30,307 nt of DNA from a virus (taxonomy: Duplodnaviria; Heunggongvirae; Uroviricota; Caudoviricetes), in IMG/VR virus record IMGVR_UViG_638341084_000020; one strand, written 5' to 3'. The position numbers and the translations under genes are program-made. A model generated the notes under the pieces. That model did not search any database, was not told the DNA's origin, and saw nothing but the letters and a program-made list of their open reading frames with translations. Positions within the stretch are counted from its first letter, which is position 1. The number at the start of each line of letters is the position of its first letter. Below, in pieces: positions 98 through 30,307 of this stretch.

Positions 98-672
98 CTA
101 CGGTAGGGCTGGCCATTCAATATCCGGTGCAGTTGATGTATCAACACGGTTCAGCAACACCCGATACTTTTTCCAGGCTTCCAGCAACAAGGTTTCTTCC
201 TCCGTTGCGATCTCCAGATCCACAGCATCCTGAAGCGGCGCAATATGCTCACTGGCTACCTGCATCAGGCTGTTTTTTGTTTCTTCCGCCTCCCGGATCC
301 GGAACAGTTTTTCTGCTTCCGTATCCTTCACCCAGGCTGTGCCGTTCCACTTCTGATATCCCCTCCCGGCGATAACCAGGTAACATTTTCCGGTAACGGA
401 CCGAGTTCAGAAATAAATAACGCGTCGCCGGAAGCCACGTCATAAACCGTTTTACCCCGATGATCTTCAACGAGATGCCACGATGCCTCATCACTGTTGA
501 AAACAGCCACGAAGCCTGCCGGAATATCTGGCGGTGCAATATCGATACTGTTTGCTGGCAGACCTGTATGAGGCGGAATATATGCGTCACCTTCACCAAT
601 AAATTCATTAGTTCCTGCCAGCAGATTATAAATTTTTATGGTCCGTGGTTGTTCACTCATTCTGAATGCCAT
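98..672 (-). pseudogene. tfa: Tail fibre assembly protein Tfa, split by an apparent -1 frameshift (N-terminal part 328..672, C-terminal part 98..331)
   Basis: Two adjacent minus-strand ORFs in different frames (114 aa and 77 aa). Together they total about 191 aa, the usual Tfa length. The first matches the Tfa N-terminus ([24 protein letters not shown]...) up to ...LSPGG, the second matches the Tfa C-terminus (...[16 protein letters not shown]...). The reading frame changes around 355..365. Confidence 0.65.
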
Positions 673-16037: not shown

Positions 16038-17099
16038 TTACGCCAGTTGTACGGACACGAACTCATCAGGGTCAGCCAGCAGCATCAGCGGTGCTGACTG
16101 AATCATGGTGAACTCACGCGCCGGATCGCCGGTGGTCACCCAGTTTTTCGGGTAACGGGCAGAGGCGTTAATGCCTTCGCGCTGTGCGTCCGCATCCTGA
16201 ATGCAGCCATAGGTGCGCAGACCGCGTGCCTGAGTGTTCCCCAGCACCATCGTGTTGTCCGGCAGGAAGTTCTTTTTGACGCCGTTTTCCACGTACTGTC
16301 CGGAATACACGACGATGGCCACATCGCCATACATCCCCTTATAGGACACCGCTTTACCTAGGTCTTTCACCGCTGTCTCCAGCTCGGAATTAGAGCCACG
16401 ACGGGTATCCAGCTTCTCCTTGACGGCTTTGAAGGAACGGAACAGCGCCCAGCCTTTCGGATCGAACACGATGATATTCACCACACCGCTGGCGTTCAGC
16501 GCGTAGGCTTCGATATCGTCGGTCGGGTCATACGTGGACTTGTCACGCTTGCTCCACTCCGTGCCGCCGGACTGCGTGATGTTATTCTCCTCACTGCGGC
16601 CCATATCCACCTCAACCGGATCGAAGGCTTCACCGGTCATGGTGTATTTGCCCTTAAGCACGGCAGAAACTGCCTGCATCTCTTCGACCTGAGCAATGGC
16701 CAGCTCTTCGTCACGCATGTTCTGCATGATGATGCGACGGCGGCGGTAAGCCGGGTCCGCCAGATTCTGCGGATCTTCATCCGGCAGGCGACGCAGGGTC
16801 ATCTGCGGATCTTCATCCGGCAGGCGACGCAGGGTCATCTGCGGATTCACTTCATGCTTCGGCTTGACATATCCCGGCGTAAATTCAGAGGTGGAGCCGC
16901 CACGGGAACGGATAACCTCACCGGAAACAATCGGCGAAACGTACAGCGCCATGTTTACCAGTCCCGGAATTTGTGAGAGATAGACTTTCTCCGTGGTGAA
17001 GGGATAGCTCTCACGGAAAAAGAGACGCAGAAACAGCGGATCAAACTTAAATTTCTGCTCATTTGCCGCCAGCAGTTGGGCGGTTGTGTACATCGACAT
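16038..17099 (-). CDS. E: Major capsid protein E, 353 aa, carrying an in-frame 12-aa tandem duplication relative to lambda E (341 aa)
   Basis: MSMYTTAQLLAANEQKFKFDPLFLRLFFRESYPFTTEKVYLSQIPGLVNMALYVSPIVSGEV... matches lambda E throughout, except that MTLRRLPDEDPQ occurs twice in tandem. Confidence 0.92.
   Translation of the reverse strand: MSMYTTAQLLAANEQKFKFDPLFLRLFFRESYPFTTEKVYLSQIPGLVNMALYVSPIVSGEVIRSRGGSTSEFTPGYVKPKHEVNPQMTLRRLPDEDPQMTLRRLPDEDPQNLADPAYRRRRIIMQNMRDEELAIAQVEEMQAVSAVLKGKYTMTGEAFDPVEVDMGRSEENNITQSGGTEWSKRDKSTYDPTDDIEAYALNASGVVNIIVFDPKGWALFRSFKAVKEKLDTRRGSNSELETAVKDLGKAVSYKGMYGDVAIVVYSGQYVENGVKKNFLPDNTMVLGNTQARGLRTYGCIQDADAQREGINASARYPKNWVTTGDPAREFTMIQSAPLMLLADPDEFVSVQLA
16767..16838 (-). 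repeat. Perfect 36-bp direct tandem duplication inside E (encodes MTLRRLPDEDPQ twice)
   Basis: Two identical adjacent 36-nt units (plus-strand unit ctgcggatcttcatccggcaggcgacgcagggtcat) corresponding to E track residues 97-108 and 109-120. Confidence 0.9.
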
Positions 17100-17154
17100 A
17101 AAAAAATCCCGTAAAAAAAGCCGCACAGGCGGCCTTTAGTGATGAAGGGTAAAG

Positions 17155-23997: not shown

Positions 23998-24282
23998 TTT
24001 GTCGCTCCATGCGCTTGCTCTTCATCTAGCGGTTAAAATATTACTTCAAATCTTTCTGTATGAAGATTTGAGCACGTTGGCCTTACATACATCTGTCGGT
24101 TGTATTTCCCTCCAGAATGCCAGCAGGACCGCACTTTGTTACACAACCAATACTATTAATTGAAAACATTCCTAATATTTGACATAAATCATCAACAAAA
24201 CACAAAGAGGTCAGACCAGATTGAAACGATAAAAACGATAATGCAAACTACGCGCCCTCGTATCACATGGAAGGTTTTACCA

Positions 24283-24693
24283 ATGGCTCAGGTTGCCATT
24301 TTTAAAGAAATATTCGATCAAGTGCGAAAAGATTTAAACTGTGAATTGTTTTATTCTGAACTAAAACGTCACAATGTCTCACATTATATTTACTATCTAG
24401 CCACAGATAATATTCACATTGTGTTAAAAAACGATAACGCTGTGTTAATAAAAGGACTTAAAAAGGTTGTAAATGTTAAATTCTCAAGAAATACGCATCT
24501 TATAGAAACGTCCTTTGATAGGTTGAAATCAAGAGAAATCACATTTCAGCAATACAGGGAAAATCTTGCTAAAGCAGGAGTTTTCCGATGGGTTACAAAT
24601 ATCCACGAACATAAAAGATATTACTATACCTTTGATAATTCATTACTATTTACTGAGAGCATTCAGAACACTACACAAATCTTTCCACGCTAA
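24283..24693 (+). CDS. ybcV: Hypothetical protein, 136 aa (YbcV-like, DUF1398)
   Basis: ATG at 24283 ([30 protein letters not shown]...) preceded by GGAAGG about 8 nt upstream. The track ORF (24160) starts at an upstream TTG; 24241 is another possible ATG. Function unknown. Confidence 0.55.
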
Positions 24694-24983
24694 ATCATAA
24701 CGTCCGGTTTCTTCCGTGTCAGCACCGGGGCGTTGGCATAATGCAATACGTGTACGCGCTAAACCCTGTGTGCATCGTTTTTAATTATTCCCGGACACTC
24801 CCGCAGAGAAGTTCCCCGTCAGGGCTGTGGACATAGTTAATCCGGGAATACAATGACGATTCATCGCACCTGACATACATTAATAAATATTAACAATATG
24901 AAATTTCAACTCATTGTTTAGGGTTTGTTTAATTTTCTACACATACGATTCTGCGAACTTCAAAAAGCATCGGGAATAACACC

Positions 24984-25277
24984 ATGAAAAAAATGCTACT
25001 CGCTACTGCGCTGGCCCTGCTTATTACAGGATGTGCTCAACAGACGTTTACTGTTCAAAACAAACAGACAGCAGTAGCACCAAAGGAAACCATCACCCAT
25101 CATTTCTTCGTTTCTGGAATTGGGCAGAAGAAAACTGTCGATGCAGCCAAAATTTGTGGCGGCGCAGAAAATGTTGTTAAAACAGAAACCCAGCAAACAT
25201 TCGTAAATGGATTGCTCGGTTTTATTACTTTAGGCATTTATACTCCGCTGGAAGCGCGTGTGTATTGCTCAAAATAA
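24984..25277 (+). CDS. bor: Bor lipoprotein (serum-resistance, Iss-like), 97 aa
   Basis: MKKMLLATALALLITGCAQQTFTVQNKQTAVAPKETITHHFFVSGIGQKKTVDAAKICGG..., near-identical to lambda Bor; lipobox LITGC; opposite strand to the late operon, as in lambda. Confidence 0.93.
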   Translation: MKKMLLATALALLITGCAQQTFTVQNKQTAVAPKETITHHFFVSGIGQKKTVDAAKICGGAENVVKTETQQTFVNGLLGFITLGIYTPLEARVYCSK

Positions 25278-25308
25278 TTGCATGAGTTGCCCATCGATAT
25301 GGTCAGCT

Positions 25309-25782
25309 CTATCTGCACTGCTCATTAATATACTTCTGGGTTCCTTCCAGTTGTTTTTGCATAGTGATCAGCCTCTCTCTGAGGGTGAAATAATCCCGTT
25401 CAGCGGTGTCTGCCAGTCGGGGGGAGGCTGCATTATCCACGCCGGAGGCCGTGGTGGCTTCACGCACTGACTGACAGACTGCTTTGATGTGCAACCGACG
25501 ACGACCAGCGGCAACATCATCACGCAGAGCATCATTTTCAGCTTTCGCATCAGCTAACTCCTTCGTGTATTTTGCATCGAGCGCAGCAACATCACGCTGA
25601 CGCATCTGCATGTCAGTAATTGCCGCGTTCGCTAGCTTCAGTTCTCTGGCATTTTTGTCGCGCTGGGCTTTGTAGGCGATTGCGTTATCACGGTAATGAT
25701 TGACCGCCCATGACAGGCTGACGATGATGCAGATAATCAGAGCGGATATAATCGCGGTTACTCTGCTCACTGTTGCCCCCAC
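25309..25782 (-). CDS. Rz: Spanin inner-membrane subunit Rz (i-spanin), 157 aa
   Basis: ...[59 protein letters not shown]... matches lambda Rz / DLP12 RzpD; N-terminal transmembrane segment plus coiled-coil region. Confidence 0.9.
25368..25550 (-). CDS. Rz1: Spanin outer-membrane lipoprotein subunit Rz1 (o-spanin), 60 aa, embedded in Rz in the +1 frame
   Basis: [60 protein letters not shown]; lipobox LVVVGC and proline-rich mature region, as in lambda Rz1. Confidence 0.88.
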
Positions 25783-26264
25783 AAACAGACTTCACGCTCA
25801 ATCTCACGACGAGTCATCAGGCCTTTCCATTGCTTACCGCCAGCGTATGTCCAGCGACGCAGCTGATCACATGCGCCTTTGATATCGCCCTGGTTTATTT
25901 TGCGAAGAAGCGTCGATGTTCTAAAATTGCCAGCACCCACATTGTAAACGAATGAGTAAAGAGCGCCGCGCGTTGTTTCCGGTATATCGACTTTGATATA
26001 CGGGTTAATTTGTCTGGCGACAGTGGCAAGGTCTTTATTCAAGAGTGCTTTGCATTCTGCTTTGGTATACGTTTTACCGAGCATGATGTCTTTTCCGGTG
26101 TGTCCGTGACATACAGTCCATACACCAACAATATCTTTGTATGGTATGTAGCTGACACCTTCCAGACCATCGTTACCACTTGGGCCAGTGATTAACACTG
26201 ATGCTATAGCAATTGCTCCGCCACCAATAGCAGCAGCAACGGCTTTTCGTAATGATGGAGGCAT
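25767..26264 (-). CDS. R: SAR endolysin R (phage-21-type T4-lysozyme-fold muramidase with N-terminal signal-anchor-release domain), 165 aa
   Basis: Gly/Ala-rich weakly hydrophobic N-terminal segment ([18 protein letters not shown]) followed by E35...D44...T50 spacing ([18 protein letters not shown]), the catalytic triad arrangement I recall for R21. Not the lambda transglycosylase R. Confidence 0.88.
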
Positions 26265-26479
26265 TATTCACCTCTCGCAGCCTTGCGCTTATCTTCTTTA
26301 ATCTTGAAATAAAGGTTTGTCAGGTACGTCAGCAGGCCAAATACCAGGCTACCCAGCACACCTATTGCTGCCCACTGTGAGGGAGTGACTTTATCGAGCA
26401 GCTGTAAAAACCAGTAACCGGCACTACCTGCTGAGGTGCCATAGGCGACTCCAGTTGTTAACTTATCCATGAATTTCAT
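26264..26479 (-). CDS. S: Pinholin / antiholin S (phage-21 S21 type), 71 aa with dual start (Met1 antiholin, Met4 holin)
   Basis: [71 protein letters not shown]; two transmembrane segments and a charged C-terminus; M-K-x-M dual-start motif. Track ORF extends 15 codons upstream. Confidence 0.85.
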
Positions 26480-27067
26480 AACCCCACCTCGCAGACAAAG
26501 CGGGTGTAAATTGAGGGAATACAACGTATCGCAAAAAAGCAGAAACGTAACTGACTCCGAGTCAGTGAATAACTCAGGTATTGAGTTATCAGCTAATATC
26601 GAGACTCAAAAAATGGAAAAACCAGCTCGACGGCGGGTTTAAGCTGTGTGACGAAGTAACCACTCTTAACAGCATAACCAATTTTTTACGTACGTAAACC
26701 ACTGAATGATATTTATGAGAATGCTACCGAGTGTTCAAAACATCACAACAAATACATAAGAAAACCTCAACAAATAACCAATAAATAATTTCCAGTGTTA
26801 TTTTTAGCCGGTTTAAATTAAACAGACGAATTATAGAACCACCATAAATAACAGCCATTAATATAAATTAGCTAATAGATTTATTTTTGTTCAAATAAGA
26901 GCCATAAATAGGTTTCGATAGAAAAAGTTCAGATAAAAATAGAGATCTACTTCACAAATTAAATGAGAAACTAAAACTTACATCTTGAAATAATCACATT
27001 GATTAGATGAATATTTATCGCGCAGTGACATCATTTTTTAATAATAGTTCAAAAAAAAGGGCTCACG

Positions 27068-28165
27068 ATGAAAAAATTAACAGTGGCAATTTCTGCTGTA
27101 GCTGCATCAGTACTGATGGCGATGTCTGCTCAGGCAGCTGAAATTTATAATAAAGACAGTAACAAGCTGGATCTGTACGGGAAAGTTAATGCCAAGCACT
27201 ACTTTTCCTCTAACGATGCAGATGATGGTGATACTACTTATGTTCGTCTGGGCTTCAAAGGCGAAACCCAAATCAACGATCAGCTGACTGGTTTCGGTCA
27301 GTGGGAATATGAATTCAAAGGCAACCGCGCTGAATCTCAAGGTTCCTCCAAAGACAAAACCCGTCTTGCATTTGCAGGCCTGAAATTCGGTGACTACGGC
27401 TCAATCGATTACGGCCGTAACTACGGTGTAGCATACGACATCGGTGCGTGGACTGACGTTCTGCCAGAATTCGGTGGCGATACCTGGACCCAAACAGATG
27501 TGTTCATGACTGGTCGCACCACTGGTGTTGCAACCTATCGTAACAACGACTTCTTTGGTCTGGTTGATGGTCTGAACTTTGCTGCTCAGTACCAAGGCAA
27601 AAACGATCGTAGCGATTTCGATAACTACACCGAAGGTAACGGTGATGGCTTCGGTTTCTCTGCTACCTATGAATACGAAGGATTCGGTATCGGTGCAACT
27701 TATGCGAAATCTGATCGTACCGACACTCAAGTTAATGCAGGGAAAGTTCTTCCTGAAGTATTTGCTTCCGGTAAAAATGCAGAAGTTTGGGCCGCAGGTC
27801 TGAAATATGACGCTAACAACATTTACCTGGCCACTACCTATTCTGAAACCCAGAATATGACTGTATTTGCTGATCACTTCGTTGCTAATAAAGCTCAAAA
27901 CTTCGAAGCTGTTGCACAATATCAGTTCGATTTCGGTCTGCGTCCGTCCGTTGCTTACCTGCAATCTAAAGGTAAGGATCTTGGAGTATGGGGCGATCAG
28001 GACTTAGTCAAATATGTTGATGTAGGTGCAACCTATTACTTCAACAAAAATATGTCTACTTTCGTTGATTACAAAATCAACCTGCTTGACAAAAATGACT
28101 TCACTAAAGCACTCGGTGTAAGCACTGATGACATCGTTGCTGTAGGTCTGGTTTACCAGTTCTAA
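27068..28165 (+). CDS. nmpC: Prophage-encoded general porin (OmpC/OmpF/PhoE superfamily; NmpC/Lc type), 365 aa, intact
   Basis: Signal peptide [23 protein letters not shown], then [24 protein letters not shown]...; C-terminal ...VAVGLVYQF (terminal Phe) typical of 16-strand porins; AAGGG ribosome-binding site; sits between Q and S on the opposite strand, as nmpC does in DLP12 and lc in PA-2. Gene symbol is by analogy and not certain. Confidence 0.85.
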
Positions 28166-28172
28166 TCTGATT

Positions 28173-28215
28173 ACGAAAAAGATATGTTGCGGGAGGCGTT
28201 GCCTCCCCAACATAT
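28173..28215 (-). terminator. Candidate intrinsic terminator downstream of Q (possible tR'-like late terminator)
   Basis: About 15-bp imperfect stem (ATATGTTGGGGAGGC ... GCCTCCCGCAACATAT) followed on the minus strand by CTTTTTCG; lies in the Q-to-porin gap. Confidence 0.4.
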
Positions 28216-28294
28216 AAGTGACTCCCTCAAGCCACTTCCTTTAGGAGCACAACCTTGCTTCTAACTATATAAACCTTCTGTTATATATTACCCT

Positions 28295-28330
28295 TTATTT
28301 TTGGGGGCGTTGCAACGCCCCATTTTTAAT
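28295..28330 (+). terminator. Candidate intrinsic terminator for the porin transcript
   Basis: Palindrome GGGGCG-TTGCAA-CGCCCC followed on the plus strand by ATTTTTAAT; about 135 nt after the porin stop. Confidence 0.4.
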
Positions 28331-28354
28331 AACTTTCAGTAAACAATTGGCATA

Positions 28355-28738
28355 TTAATTAGAGTTATTAACAACGATATCCATCTCTAATCGGATATCT
28401 AATGCCATTAACATCCCTTCAATTATGCCCTCAGCCTTCTGTAACCTTTTCCCGATATAACCATCAGAGCAGCAATGCTTACCTGCCAGTGACATGAATG
28501 TCATACCGACTACATAATAATCTACTAATAAATCGTGCAAATCGCTGTTGTTCTTTTTCAGACGGGCCATGCACCCGCAAATAATCATCGCGTCATCGTC
28601 ACAACATTGCGGGCGAGATTTTACTTTTGAAGGAATTAATCCCTTAAAACCGGCGGCAATGGACGACCAGGTCACATCTTCATGATTATTAGCCACCCAC
28701 GCTCCCCAACGTTCAAGAACCATCTGAATATCACGCAT
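28355..28738 (-). CDS. Q: Late-gene antitermination protein Q (phage-82 / DLP12 QuuD type), 127 aa
   Basis: [62 protein letters not shown]... matches the 127-aa DLP12 QuuD as recalled; Cys-rich zinc-binding region. Track ORF starts 5 codons upstream (28753). Confidence 0.85.
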
Positions 28739-28755
28739 TAACTTTCTCCACAAAA

Positions 28756-29751
28756 TCAGGCCAGCACACCAATCGCCAGTGCGCGATCGATAAAACGAAA
28801 TATCAGCTCCAGCTGGGAGCCATACTTCTCTTCAAATGCCACGGTATCCGCATGCAGTTCGTCGTGGTGTTTTCTGCACAAAGGCAGCACAAAAAGGTCA
28901 TGCGCTTTTGTACCCATTCCACCCTGACCATGGCCTATCAGATGATGCGGATCATCAGCTGGCTTTCCACAACATGCACACGGCTGTGTCTTAACCCTGC
29001 GCGTGTACTTTTCATTAACCCAGCGGCGACGTTTTGGGCGTAACATAAAAGACTCCGGCGACTCCGGATCCACTTTCAGCGCCAGCACCTTTTTCGCCTT
29101 ATCCTGGATGATGCTGGTGGCAGGAACCGAAGGCACAAGGTCACTTTCCCGGGTAACAGACGGCACAACAGGCTTCGGTAATCTCAGTGCCTTACGGGCT
29201 GCACTTTCCGGTAAGGCATCCGCCAGATCATTACGAATCAGCCACCAGCACAGTTCCGGCATTGTCACAACGTGACTGTCATCAAAACCGAGATCCCGAC
29301 GCACAACAGACAACACCCAGCGGGCACAGTTATCCGTTGCCATTGATTCCAGCCGTTCCGTGAACTGATCGCGCAGCTGGTTATCGCAGTGCCAGCACAG
29401 ACGGATTGCACCCGGAGCGTGTCGCATTGTGGTCATGTTCTCGCTGTGCCAGTCGGAATGAGGCCACTGGCAGCCTTTTTCACGAAGTAACCAGCTTTCA
29501 AGACATTCCACGCCACCAGCACGACGGATCACTGCCTCATTGCGGAACACGGCCCGAACGGCAGGATCATCCGCCAGCGGTTGTGATGCCGCCGGAACGG
29601 CACCACTGGCGAAAGATGAATAACGCTCCGGCTCAGGCTCCAGCAGGACACGCCCCTGCATAAACAGGGGCATCAGCTCTGAACCTGGCCTGAACAATAC
29701 GATCCCCATACGCGGGGCAATTTCAGGGGTCAGTAGTGCTCTCACGGTCAC
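28756..29751 (-). CDS. Cys/His-rich prophage protein, 331 aa (probably DUF968 / YdfU-like)
   Basis: Sits immediately upstream of Q as ydfU does upstream of quuQ in Qin; C-terminal [43 protein letters not shown] and an internal CWHCDNQ suggest metal-binding, possibly HNH-like; family assignment is from memory only. Confidence 0.55.
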
Positions 29752-29752
29752 C

Positions 29753-30307
29753 TCAATGAACGGTATCGAGCAGCTTTAACAGCTCAGGGAATCGGGATTC
29801 GAAGAAATGCGGCTGTGTCTCGCGCGGATTTGCGGGACTGGTGATGTTCTTGCCGAACATGCAACCTTTCGCTGTCAGCGACCAGAATTTTTTGATGTTG
29901 TTAATCGCTGTACGGCTGTATCGTTCGCGCTGCTCGACGATCCCCAGTTTCACCATCTAGTGATATGCCTGATTAGCCGTCAGGCGTATACCATACTGTT
30001 TCAGCAGTGCACTCAGTGACAGTGTCGGGCGACTTGAGCCATCGTGTGCATCAGCAGGAGCATCAATGGCATAGCGCGGTGCCAGATTCGGTAAGCCAAC
30101 AGCCTCCTGGAGTTTCTGACAGGCACCAAGCACTGAAGAGTTAGACAGGTTTAACTCCCGGCGCATAAAGTCCAGCAGGATCACGCCAGCCTGCATCTTG
30201 TCAGCAGCCTGTCCGGATAATTTTTCCGGTGCGCTGGTTACCATATCGAAAGTACGGATCACCTTCAGATGGAATGACGGGCTGATCCACATTGCATAGG
30301 CATACAC
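29753..30307 (-). pseudogene. Putative antirepressor-type regulatory protein (KilAC/Ant-like C-terminal region), 5' end outside the window, interrupted by a single in-frame TAG at 29957..29959
   Basis: ORFs 29957..30307 and 29753..29956 are in the same frame and separated only by one TAG; the downstream ORF begins at the ATG directly after the stop with no convincing ribosome-binding site; ...LLKQYGIRLTANQAYH * MVKLGIVEQRERYSRTAINNIKKFWSLTAKG reads like one continuous domain. Confidence 0.4.

Follow-up and report, generated by a model that had tools for sequence, protein, structure and literature searches.

The porin gene of this prophage most likely sits just upstream of the late promoter, between the late antiterminator gene Q and a homologue of the late promoter module pR', and so outside the late operon. 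Three comparisons place the porin upstream of the late start: the pR' module lies beyond the cargo in two viral contigs and in PhiR55_1, and the spacer between Q and the porin gene is found with the porin only. The locus is in all likelihood the lc/nmpC lysogenic-conversion cassette of a PA-2/DLP12-type lambdoid prophage, inserted between Q and the late promoter. Positions refer to the window, the whole stretch of 30,307 nucleotides that was analysed. An earlier note on this DNA had put the porin inside the late operon. That placement is not borne out: the pR' homologue is found at 26617..26699, downstream of the porin as read from Q, and two related viral contigs (L078 and L079) and PhiR55_1 concur.

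The porin gene and its neighbours

The lc/nmpC porin gene (27068..28165, plus strand) is intact and encodes 365 amino acids. It matches Pfam Porin_1 (PF00267) with an E value of 1.8e-156, residues 29-365 covering profile positions 1-337 of 337, at 521 bits against a curated cut-off of 23.7. It also passes the NCBIfam cut-off for the OmpC subfamily (527.8 bits vs 484) and scores below both the PhoE and the OmpF equivalog cut-offs. The mature chains of OmpC and OmpK36 crystal structures align from residue 24 (AEIYNK) to the C-terminal YQF at residue 365 (E about 5e-136). Since this alignment begins at residue 24, the porin has a signal peptide of 23 residues (27068..27136, plus strand), and the PA-2 record (J02580) annotates an identical one. 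A Shine-Dalgarno sequence, AAGGG, is located at 27057..27061, 6 nt 5' of the ATG. The description of an intact OmpC-family porin with its own signal peptide and ribosome-binding site, made beforehand from the letters of the DNA, is thus confirmed. From the end-to-end alignment with solved OmpC chains, the protein is expected to be a 16-stranded β-barrel trimer forming a diffusion pore.

A protein search against NmpC and PA-2 Lc, proposed in the earlier note, gives 362 of 365 identical residues in each case. The gene is therefore the long-known phage porin lc/nmpC, intact here; this identity is already known and adds nothing new. All 78 related viral loci with a readable gene hold an intact porin ORF. 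Allele differences among related loci fall mostly within residues 181-360, with none in the first 40. Annotators of related phages name the gene OmpD or OmpC.

As had been noticed earlier, the porin lies between Q and the lysis genes, and all the genes flanking it are on the opposite strand. Q, of the QuuD type (28355..28738, minus strand), encodes 127 amino acids from its ATG, the program ORF starting at TTG 28753; its homologue in strain 12A is annotated quuD. It matches Pfam Phage_antitermQ (PF06530, E 1.2e-53) and, distantly, the Q21 crystal chains (E 2e-8). It is identical in 98 of 126 residues (78%) to Q of Sp5, a Stx2 phage of Sakai, with divergence confined to the C-terminal tail. On the other side is the lysis cassette (25309..26479), also on the minus strand. 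It comprises a phage-21-type pinholin S (26264..26479; Pfam Phage_holin_2_1, homologue annotated essD), a SAR endolysin R (25767..26264; Pfam Phage_lysozyme, homologue rrrD), Rz (25309..25770 as annotated in 12A, with the program ORF extending to GTG 25782; Pfam Phage_lysis, rzpD) and Rz1 (25368..25550). The AT-rich DNA of about 540 bp described ahead of the porin is there as well. This porin-S spacer (26525..27067, 543 bp) has a G+C content of 25-41%, against about 45-55% around it, with a dip to 25-29% just upstream of the porin, where nearby DNA is at about 50%; it holds just three short ORFs of 44-57 amino acids.

The Q-porin-S module is present in 36 phage records, and 2,395 of 5,426 complete E. 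coli genomes match at least 80% of the query. Window positions 26200-28800 are 100% identical to a prophage of E. coli O111:H2 12A, which is full-length, is located at argU/intD (the DLP12 site) and has a full set of head and tail genes. Like a moron, the porin gene has its own terminator, found by terminator scan, and a putative promoter, by identity to the documented K-12 allele. Its base composition diverges from that of its surroundings, and its presence at this site varies among related phages: in Stx phages Q abuts pR' with no insert, and in PhiR55_1 another gene takes its place.

A probable pR' module between porin and holin

The putative late promoter module is an 83-bp homologue, on the minus strand at 26617..26699, of the PR' module of Stx phages. 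It consists of a -35 hexamer TTTACG (26698..26693), a 16-nt spacer and a -10 hexamer TATGCT (26676..26671), with a predicted start at A26664. The conserved initial transcribed sequence AAGAGTGGTTAC, which is pause-like, follows, and then a hairpin and U-run ending near 26617, so that the first terminator would stand at about +48. Over 83 nt, the block shares 77% identity with the sequence that immediately follows Q in Stx phages. It has homologues in 362 phage records, and OP797663 annotates it as 'pR'' plus 'rho-independent terminator'. In strain Sakai the PR' start was mapped experimentally by dRNA-seq/Term-seq. The same hexamers are found there 258 nt before the end of the tR' hairpin, which equals the PR'-tR' distance given by those data, and the published Sakai coordinates of the two are both shifted by 142 nt. 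In phage 21 the pR'-terminator layout is the same and takes 85 bp. The window thus carries a sigma-70-type promoter sequence with an intrinsic terminator within about 50 nt, homologous to a mapped pR'.

The module is not immediately downstream of Q; it begins 1,656 bp past the Q stop, beyond the porin. As Q acts in trans, adjacency to Q is how these modules are usually placed and is not needed for function. The hexamers match the consensus at 8 of 12 positions, below the threshold of a generic promoter scan, and that scan found no site in either the porin-S or the Q-porin spacer. A relaxed scan (at least 8/12) gave six minus-strand sites, all outside the Q-porin spacer (28166..28354). The window allele has a mismatch in the stem of the first terminator, T at 26624, which is common to PA-2 and PhiR29_1; it folds into a weaker alternative hairpin, at -8.4 kcal/mol where the K-12 allele reaches -13.9 kcal/mol.

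From the predicted start to the ATG of S there are about 185 nt. The rest of the predicted late leader (26480..26616, minus strand) has hairpins at 26590..26568 and 26566..26550 and a T-run near 26535, and folds at -21.9 kcal/mol (z -2.8). It is common to Shigella phage SfIV, where it precedes a different holin, and homology with other lysis cassettes has its boundary at about 26616. Phage 434B, carrying the Q, late promoter and lysis segment of DLP12, is propagated and forms plaques. This shows that the segment works as a whole and says nothing on where transcription starts.

A related-locus search with Q returned only Q genes 97-99% identical, all of them followed by the porin. Those loci cannot separate Q from its promoter; useful comparators were found in the phage collection instead. 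PhiR55_1 carries the same Q type (identical in the N-terminal half, 83% at the DNA level), then a different antisense cargo and then the pR' module, at 85.5% identity. In the viral contigs L078 and L079 the Sakai PR'-StxS-tRNA block comes after the porin cassette, and in these two and in L056 another lysis cassette directly follows the pR' module. In these comparisons the pR' module keeps its place downstream of whatever cargo comes after Q.

We considered that the late promoter might instead be next to Q, so that Q-modified transcripts would cross the whole porin gene in antisense before reaching S and cause transcriptional interference. In lambda-like phages pR' is normally directly after Q, as in the phage 21 annotation and in Sakai; a Q-strand hairpin and U-run at 28215..28182 could be read as tR'; and in phage IdasGreatGrand the DNA separating a related Q from an antisense lipocalin gene contains a promoter-like site and a terminator. 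However, the stretch 28166..28354 holds no minus-strand promoter-like site of at least 8/12, and the Q stop is just 33 bp away from the hairpin of the porin terminator. The Q-porin spacer was seen in no phage record that lacks the porin, and the porin cassette of P7, which comes without Q, has it too. Moreover, the homologue of the mapped Stx PR' is beyond the porin here and beyond the cargo in L078/L079 and PhiR55_1. We therefore find a promoter adjacent to Q very improbable. The hairpin at 28215..28182 was dropped as a tR' candidate, since porin-only occurrence and P7 assign the spacer to the porin cassette.

With pR' placed beyond the porin, late transcripts need not cross the porin gene. 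Q would act in trans on the module about 1.66 kb downstream of its stop codon and about 185 nt upstream of S, and Q-modified transcription would start downstream of the porin and run away from it. The statement that Q-modified transcripts must read through the porin in antisense is therefore not supported, the pR' homologue lying beyond the porin and the Q-porin spacer, part of the porin's 3'UTR, lacking a minus-strand promoter-like site of at least 8/12.

Transcription of the porin and its ends

The porin-proximal part of the porin-S spacer is supported as the site of the porin promoter. The region corresponding to PnmpC (26869..27067, plus strand) was assigned by homology to the K-12 and PA-2 alleles; together with the 3'UTR it is 97-98% identical to them. 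In K-12, PnmpC activity is lost on deleting -199..-1, and nmpC transcription was detected by 5'RACE, with a 'G' start whose coordinate is not given. CRP, OmpR, IHF and MprA sites have been reported for K-12 PnmpC, and the CRP site of the PA-2 record maps to 26939..26959 in the window. The probable hexamers here are TTGAAA (-35, 26985..26990) and GAATAT (-10, 27009..27014), with a start at about G27020. The earlier presumption that the spacer carries the porin promoter thus agrees with the K-12 deletion and 5'RACE, for the porin-proximal part and, in this prophage, by identity. The spacer would carry two divergent promoters, about 350 bp apart.

It has been reported that the DLP12 SRRz operon is under the control of Q, RpoE and Hha (Rueggeberg et al. 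2013, 2015, as cited in PMC7918800). Accordingly, the lysis genes could be driven mainly by the published 'essDp', an RpoE-type, Q-responsive promoter about 50 bp upstream of the porin start codon, with a minus-strand start near 27019 and an AT-rich leader of 540 nt. The forward primer of the '-121 to +650' fragment of PMC7918800 maps to 27140..27121, which with the fragment numbering places the essDp +1 near 27019; the reverse primer has no exact K-12 match. A GAACT...GTCAC motif is found near 27019 in our own reading of the sequence, and a lux reporter driven by the cloned fragment was responsive to pH and osmolarity (PMC7918800). However, this fragment also includes the pR' module at 26617..26699. 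It spans both promoters, and thus its reporter activity cannot tell essDp from pR'. The proposed start also coincides, in the opposite direction, with the probable porin start at about G27020. Finally, the essDp site is inside the porin cassette, and what is conserved with related Q genes next to other cargo is the pR' module. Although essDp and pR' are not mutually exclusive, we consider it quite improbable that essDp is the main promoter of the lysis genes.

At its other end, the porin gene is followed by a 3'UTR (28166..28330, plus strand) that corresponds to the region of the IpeX sRNA in K-12, folds into several stem-loops and has the porin terminator at its end. From stop codon to U-run it measures about 165 nt in the window, vs a reported 167 nt for IpeX, an sRNA that comes from the porin promoter, being part of the porin transcript, and represses the host porins OmpC and OmpF. 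It folds at -46 kcal/mol (z -5.8) and is about 97% identical to K-12 and PA-2. Rfam at gathering thresholds gave no family in this region, the sole match being IS009 at 132..330, and IpeX is seemingly absent from the Rfam set; the 3'UTR was therefore assigned by identity to K-12 and by the literature. The 3'UTR, or Q-porin spacer, was found only together with the porin (36 of 36 phage records). In phage P7 the nmpC homologue is followed by the same arrangement of stem-loops, the 3'UTR having travelled with the porin into P7. The intrinsic terminator of the porin/IpeX transcript (28304..28330, plus strand) reads GGGGCGTTGCAACGCCCC and then ATTTTT. It has a 7-bp stem with 6 G-C pairs and a T-run by terminator scan, is kept in K-12, PA-2 and P7, and its hairpin is only 33 bp from the Q stop.

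On the minus strand, a strong hairpin followed by CUUUUUCG (28182..28215) is a likely terminator of the early/Q transcript. Its plus-strand reading is the first stem-loop of the porin 3'UTR. It folds at -25.3 kcal/mol (z -5.5), and none of 200 shuffles folds as well. This hairpin and its U-run probably stop early/Q transcripts before the porin gene. An rrnB terminator placed between nmpC and quuD had no effect in K-12, from which the authors of that work concluded that transcription coming from quuD is already stopped by intrinsic terminators.

Lytic early transcripts could nevertheless pass Q and these terminators and cross the porin in antisense, shutting it off after induction. Q and the porin are convergent, and their likely terminators are interleaved, which would give the two 3' ends an overlap of about 140 nt. 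Early transcription in lambda resists terminators once modified by N. Against this, the annotation of the matching 12A prophage, which has an immunity region of the LexA-family/Cro type, lists no N-like antiterminator, and the Q-strand hairpin is strong (-25.3 kcal/mol). In K-12, transcription entering from quuD was below detection, as measured in a defective prophage without induction. A shut-off of the porin by early transcripts is thus rather unlikely. Some antisense transcripts could still cross the porin if the early operon is antiterminated in lytic growth.

The preferred reading, a cassette outside the late operon, would then work as follows. The porin cassette would be a self-contained unit, with its own host-regulated promoter in about 200 bp of porin-proximal spacer. 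It would encode a general-diffusion porin, an IpeX-like 3'UTR of about 165 nt lowering OmpC/OmpF and a strong intrinsic terminator, and the Q-strand hairpin at 28215..28182 would stop early transcripts before they enter the porin. Both the pR' module and the Q-side terminator are predicted to function in this prophage. The porin would be expressed in the lysogen from its host-regulated promoter, with the 3'UTR of IpeX type lowering OmpC and OmpF. Lysogenic conversion, which the earlier note had suggested, is the established reading for this gene and fits the near-identity to PA-2 Lc and the IpeX counterpart in the 3'UTR. The literature on PA-2 assigns Lc a role in receptor exclusion.

The proposed map and the closest known systems

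The useful part of this analysis is the corrected map. If the late promoter separates the porin from the holin gene, the late operon does not include the porin, which would then be expressed from its own promoter in the lysogen, with no collision with Q-modified polymerase. The map affects the annotation of such prophages and the interpretation of RNA-seq across the region. It also bears on K-12 work that sites the DLP12 lysis-gene promoter beside nmpC.

It is tempting to go further and propose that the junction between Q and pR' is a recurrent slot for antisense envelope-protein cargo, insulated from early and late transcription and expressed only in the lysogen. As a generalisation we hold this to be unlikely. 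Candidates for such a slot are the porin here, a lipoprotein in PhiR55_1 and possibly a lipocalin in IdasGreatGrand and lpxR in phage 434. On this proposal, the IpeX 3'UTR overlaps the Q transcript at its 3' end, and porin expression could thereby be linked to the dosage of Q, for which the lambda paQ antisense RNA is an analogue. If the proposal were true, the published DLP12 late promoter 'essDp' would be misplaced, and pR' would make a short, terminated, StxS-like leader RNA in a large share of E. coli genomes.

Among the closest known systems is phage PA-2 lc (GenBank J02580; Blasband, Marcotte and Schnaitman 1986). Its DNA is 98.3% identical and collinear with window positions 25577-28390 (2.8 kb), through Rz, R, S, the spacer, lc and the 3' region. 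Its Lc protein differs from the window porin at V59A, R99H and V154F (window residue first), and it has the same annotated CRP sites, pR' module and terminator allele. The DNA of the window comes from a prophage integrated at argU/DLP12 in an O111:H2-type strain; the PA-2 record covers only part of the PA-2 genome.

The DLP12 (qsr') prophage of K-12 has the same gene order, with quuD, nmpC on the opposite strand, essD, rrrD, rzpD, borD and ybcV, at the same integration site. DNA identity is about 97.4% over the ybcV-to-Q stretch (window 24001-28773), and the 362 of 365 identical residues of NmpC are counted with IS5 removed. The earlier statement that K-12 nmpC is disrupted by IS5 proved right: in the K-12 annotation b0553 is a pseudogene, interrupted by IS5B after codon 346, in a defective prophage, whereas the window gene is intact. 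The first late terminator of K-12 differs from that of the window by one stem base.

The host porins OmpC, OmpF and PhoE and Salmonella OmpD belong to the same Pfam family and align over their full length, OmpC and OmpK36 being the best structural relatives. Unlike them, the window porin is phage-borne.

The Stx phages (933W, Sakai Sp5 and Sp15) have a related Q (78%) and homologous -35, -10, initial transcribed sequence and first hairpin terminator, and they also carry cargo near Q. Their module and the end of Q overlap, and the cargo, tRNAs and stx, is downstream of PR' in sense and is thus expressed as a late product. Their long StxS leader is absent in the window and present in the variants L078 and L079. 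In the window, by contrast, the cargo is upstream of pR', antisense, and has its own host-regulated promoter, from which it would be expressed in the lysogen.

A porin locus of the lc/nmpC type

As the earlier note had described, an intact OmpC-family porin gene lies antisense between Q and the lysis genes. The open reading frame (27068..28165, plus strand) encodes 365 aa, matches the Pfam profile Porin_1 over its entire length (E 1.8e-156) and exceeds the NCBIfam cut-off for the OmpC subfamily. Its minus-strand neighbours are Q (PF06530, 28355..28738) and a phage-21-type pinholin gene (26264..26479), beyond which come the SAR endolysin and Rz/Rz1 genes, followed on the plus strand by bor and ybcV. 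The signal peptide and ribosome-binding site attributed to the gene were also found: the crystal chains of mature OmpC and OmpK36 align from residue 24 (AEIYNK) to the C-terminal YQF (E ~5e-136), consequently a 23-residue signal peptide is present, and AAGGG stands 6 nt ahead of the ATG. The 543-bp spacer at 26525..27067, with G+C down to 25-29%, contains three ORFs only, of 44-57 aa each.

Judged by its sequence, the locus is lc/nmpC, and the porin gene is a textbook case, already known. The phage PA-2 record J02580 (2,816 bp; Rz, R and lc) and window 25577..28390 are collinear and share 98.3% identity. The protein comparison called for in the earlier note gave 362/365 identical residues both with PA-2 Lc (3/365 differ) and with K-12 NmpC once IS5 is removed, which agrees with the identity proposed there and with a likely role in lysogenic conversion. 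The disruption of the K-12 copy named in that note also held, since the annotation gives nmpC as a pseudogene that IS5B splits, whereas the window copy is intact. From ybcV to Q, K-12 and window DNA are ~97.4% identical. OmpC is presumably the PA-2 receptor, and Lc would then protect lysogens by replacing OmpC.

E. coli O111:H2 strain 12A has, at intD/tRNA-Arg (the DLP12 site), a prophage that matches window 26200-28800 with 100% identity and whose head and tail genes form a full set. The Q-porin-S-R module was found in 36 phage records, including the isolated phages PhiR29_1 (99.7%) and 434B, and at least 80% of it is covered in 2,395 of 5,426 complete E. coli genomes. The porin ORF is intact in all 78 related viral loci where the gene could be read. 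Two allele classes (365 and 360 aa; loci L006-L084) share ~92% protein and 86-89% DNA identity, differing mostly in residues 181-360 and not at all in the first 40, with flanking Q, spacers and S 92-99% identical.

Elsewhere in the window, the major capsid protein ORF (16038..17126, minus strand) carries a perfect, in-frame 36-bp tandem duplication (16766..16846; 2.2 copies, 12 extra codons). The 12A prophage, 99.9% identical in other respects, lacks this duplication, and its best E. coli genome matches come as two pieces, spanning 95 bp only. Upstream of the DUF968 gene, a gene at 29753..30307 (minus strand) is split into two ORFs; its 12A counterpart is annotated as a pseudogene with a KilA-N domain and an internal stop. 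The only Rfam family matched in the window was IS009 (RF02111), full-length at 132..330 (minus strand; 224 bits, E 3e-55).

The porin cassette as a transcription unit

In K-12, nmpC is transcribed according to 5'RACE, from a 'G' start that agrees with an earlier report; PnmpC activity is lost on deleting -199..-1, and the promoter is activated by CRP and repressed by OmpR, IHF and MprA (PMC11677980). The CRP sites annotated in the PA-2 record map to window 26939..26959 and 26644..26664. The latter, site 1 of that 1986 record (CTGTGTGACGAAGTAACCACT), overlaps the predicted start and initial transcribed region of the late promoter pR', and may lie outside the porin promoter.

Past the stop codon, the porin transcript would carry a structured 3'UTR of ~165 nt (-46 kcal/mol, z -5.8), ended by a strong plus-strand terminator (28304..28321 plus a T-run). 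IpeX, a 167-nt sRNA that represses OmpC and OmpF, is part of the porin transcript and comes from the porin promoter (PMC12197685, PMC5069750); the 3'UTR corresponds to it. The P1-like phage P7 (L092 964..2312) has an nmpC homologue of ~74% DNA identity which keeps ~60 bp upstream, a window-like 3'UTR stem-loop layout and the terminator. Thus, the whole cassette is transferred together between phages of unrelated types. The P7 cassette has no Q beside it, and the Q-porin spacer is accompanied by the porin in 36 of 36 phage records; consequently, this spacer is part of the porin cassette rather than of Q.

The late promoter and the direction of late transcription

A distant search matched, in hundreds of Stx phages, Q together with a second piece equivalent to window 26617..26699, which there adjoins Q directly downstream. 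In the Sakai Stx2 prophage Sp5 this DNA carries TTTACG-16-TATCAT; counted from a start 7 nt past the -10, the hairpin GCCAGCC...GGCTGGCTTTTTT ends exactly 258 nt further on. Sakai PR' and tR' were mapped 258 nt apart by dRNA-seq and Term-seq (PMC7547250), both published coordinates being shifted by an identical 142 nt against the current RefSeq version. The same block is annotated in OP797663 as 'pR'' and 'rho-independent terminator'. The window Q and Sakai Q share 78% identity, diverging only in the C-terminal tail. The homologous block of the window (minus strand) has a -35 TTTACG (26698..26693), a -10 TATGCT (26676..26671), a predicted start at A26664, an initial transcribed region in which AAGAGTGGTTAC is conserved, and a putative first terminator, hairpin and U-run, ending near 26617. 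The hexamers match the consensus weakly.

The same order recurs elsewhere. In two related viral contigs (L078, L079), the porin cassette comes after Q, and only beyond it a block 87% identical to the Sakai PR'-StxS-tR'-tRNA region (L087 811-1557 against L078 7039-7782, three tRNA genes included). PhiR55_1 has a Q of the same type (N-terminal half identical, 83% DNA identity to the window), a different antisense gene and, beyond it, the pR' module at 85.5% identity. In L078, L079 and a third contig (L056), Q, porin and spacer are kept to ~26616, where a different lysis cassette begins; therefore the pR' module travels with Q and its cargo, not with S.

We propose that the porin cassette stands between Q and pR', and that the AT-rich spacer holds two divergent promoters ~350 bp apart, PnmpC toward the porin and pR' toward S. 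Late transcription would begin ~185 nt ahead of S, moving away from the porin. The earlier note placed the porin inside the late operon and held that Q-modified transcripts must cross it in antisense; with the cassette between Q and pR' and the late start downstream of the porin, such an obligatory crossing is not supported, and on this sequence evidence the proposed topology appears wrong. On the minus strand of the Q-porin spacer, a scan gave no promoter-like site, not even at 8/12, and the Q stop lies only 33 bp from the porin terminator hairpin.

A Q- and RpoE-dependent promoter, 'essDp', was reportedly proposed by Rueggeberg et al. (2013, 2015). Its start would fall near window 27019, judging by the primers and numbering of PMC7918800, and it may coexist with pR'. 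As those primers place it, the fragment cloned in PMC7918800 includes the pR' module too, and thus the two are not told apart. Antiterminated early transcripts could also cross the porin after induction, but the annotation of the matching 12A prophage lists no N-like gene. A strong Q-strand hairpin followed by CUUUUUCG (28215..28182; -25.3 kcal/mol, z -5.5) probably terminates the early transcript. In K-12, inserting a terminator in the nmpC-quuD interval changed nothing, and the authors of that work concluded that transcription arriving from the quuD side is already stopped by intrinsic terminators.

A possible cargo slot and the phage 21 module

Other antisense genes adjoin Q or the pR' module elsewhere: a 148-aa protein with a lipoprotein signal in PhiR55_1 (L093 2647..3093), a lipocalin-like lipoprotein in IdasGreatGrand (L086 1803..2327; PF08212, 1e-43), the lipid A deacylase LpxR in phage 434 (L001 6255..7214) and a 356-aa ORF in SfIV (L088 2348..3418), the pR' module beyond the cargo being shown, among these four, for PhiR55_1 only. 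This suggests that the Q-pR' junction may repeatedly receive envelope cargo in antisense orientation, which would be modestly new.

The stem of the first late terminator is polymorphic at 26624 (minus-strand T; G in K-12), related loci being split roughly half between GCTGG (window, PA-2, PhiR29_1) and GCGGG (K-12, 434B). The T breaks the canonical stem and leaves an alternative hairpin of -8.4 kcal/mol, against -13.9 for the K-12/434B stem, so that the effective tR' of the window allele is uncertain; isolated, propagated phages exist for both alleles. The module studied experimentally in phage 21 has the same layout as that of the window, with -35, Q-binding element, -10, start, pause element and a terminator at +2..+50, all within 85 bp.
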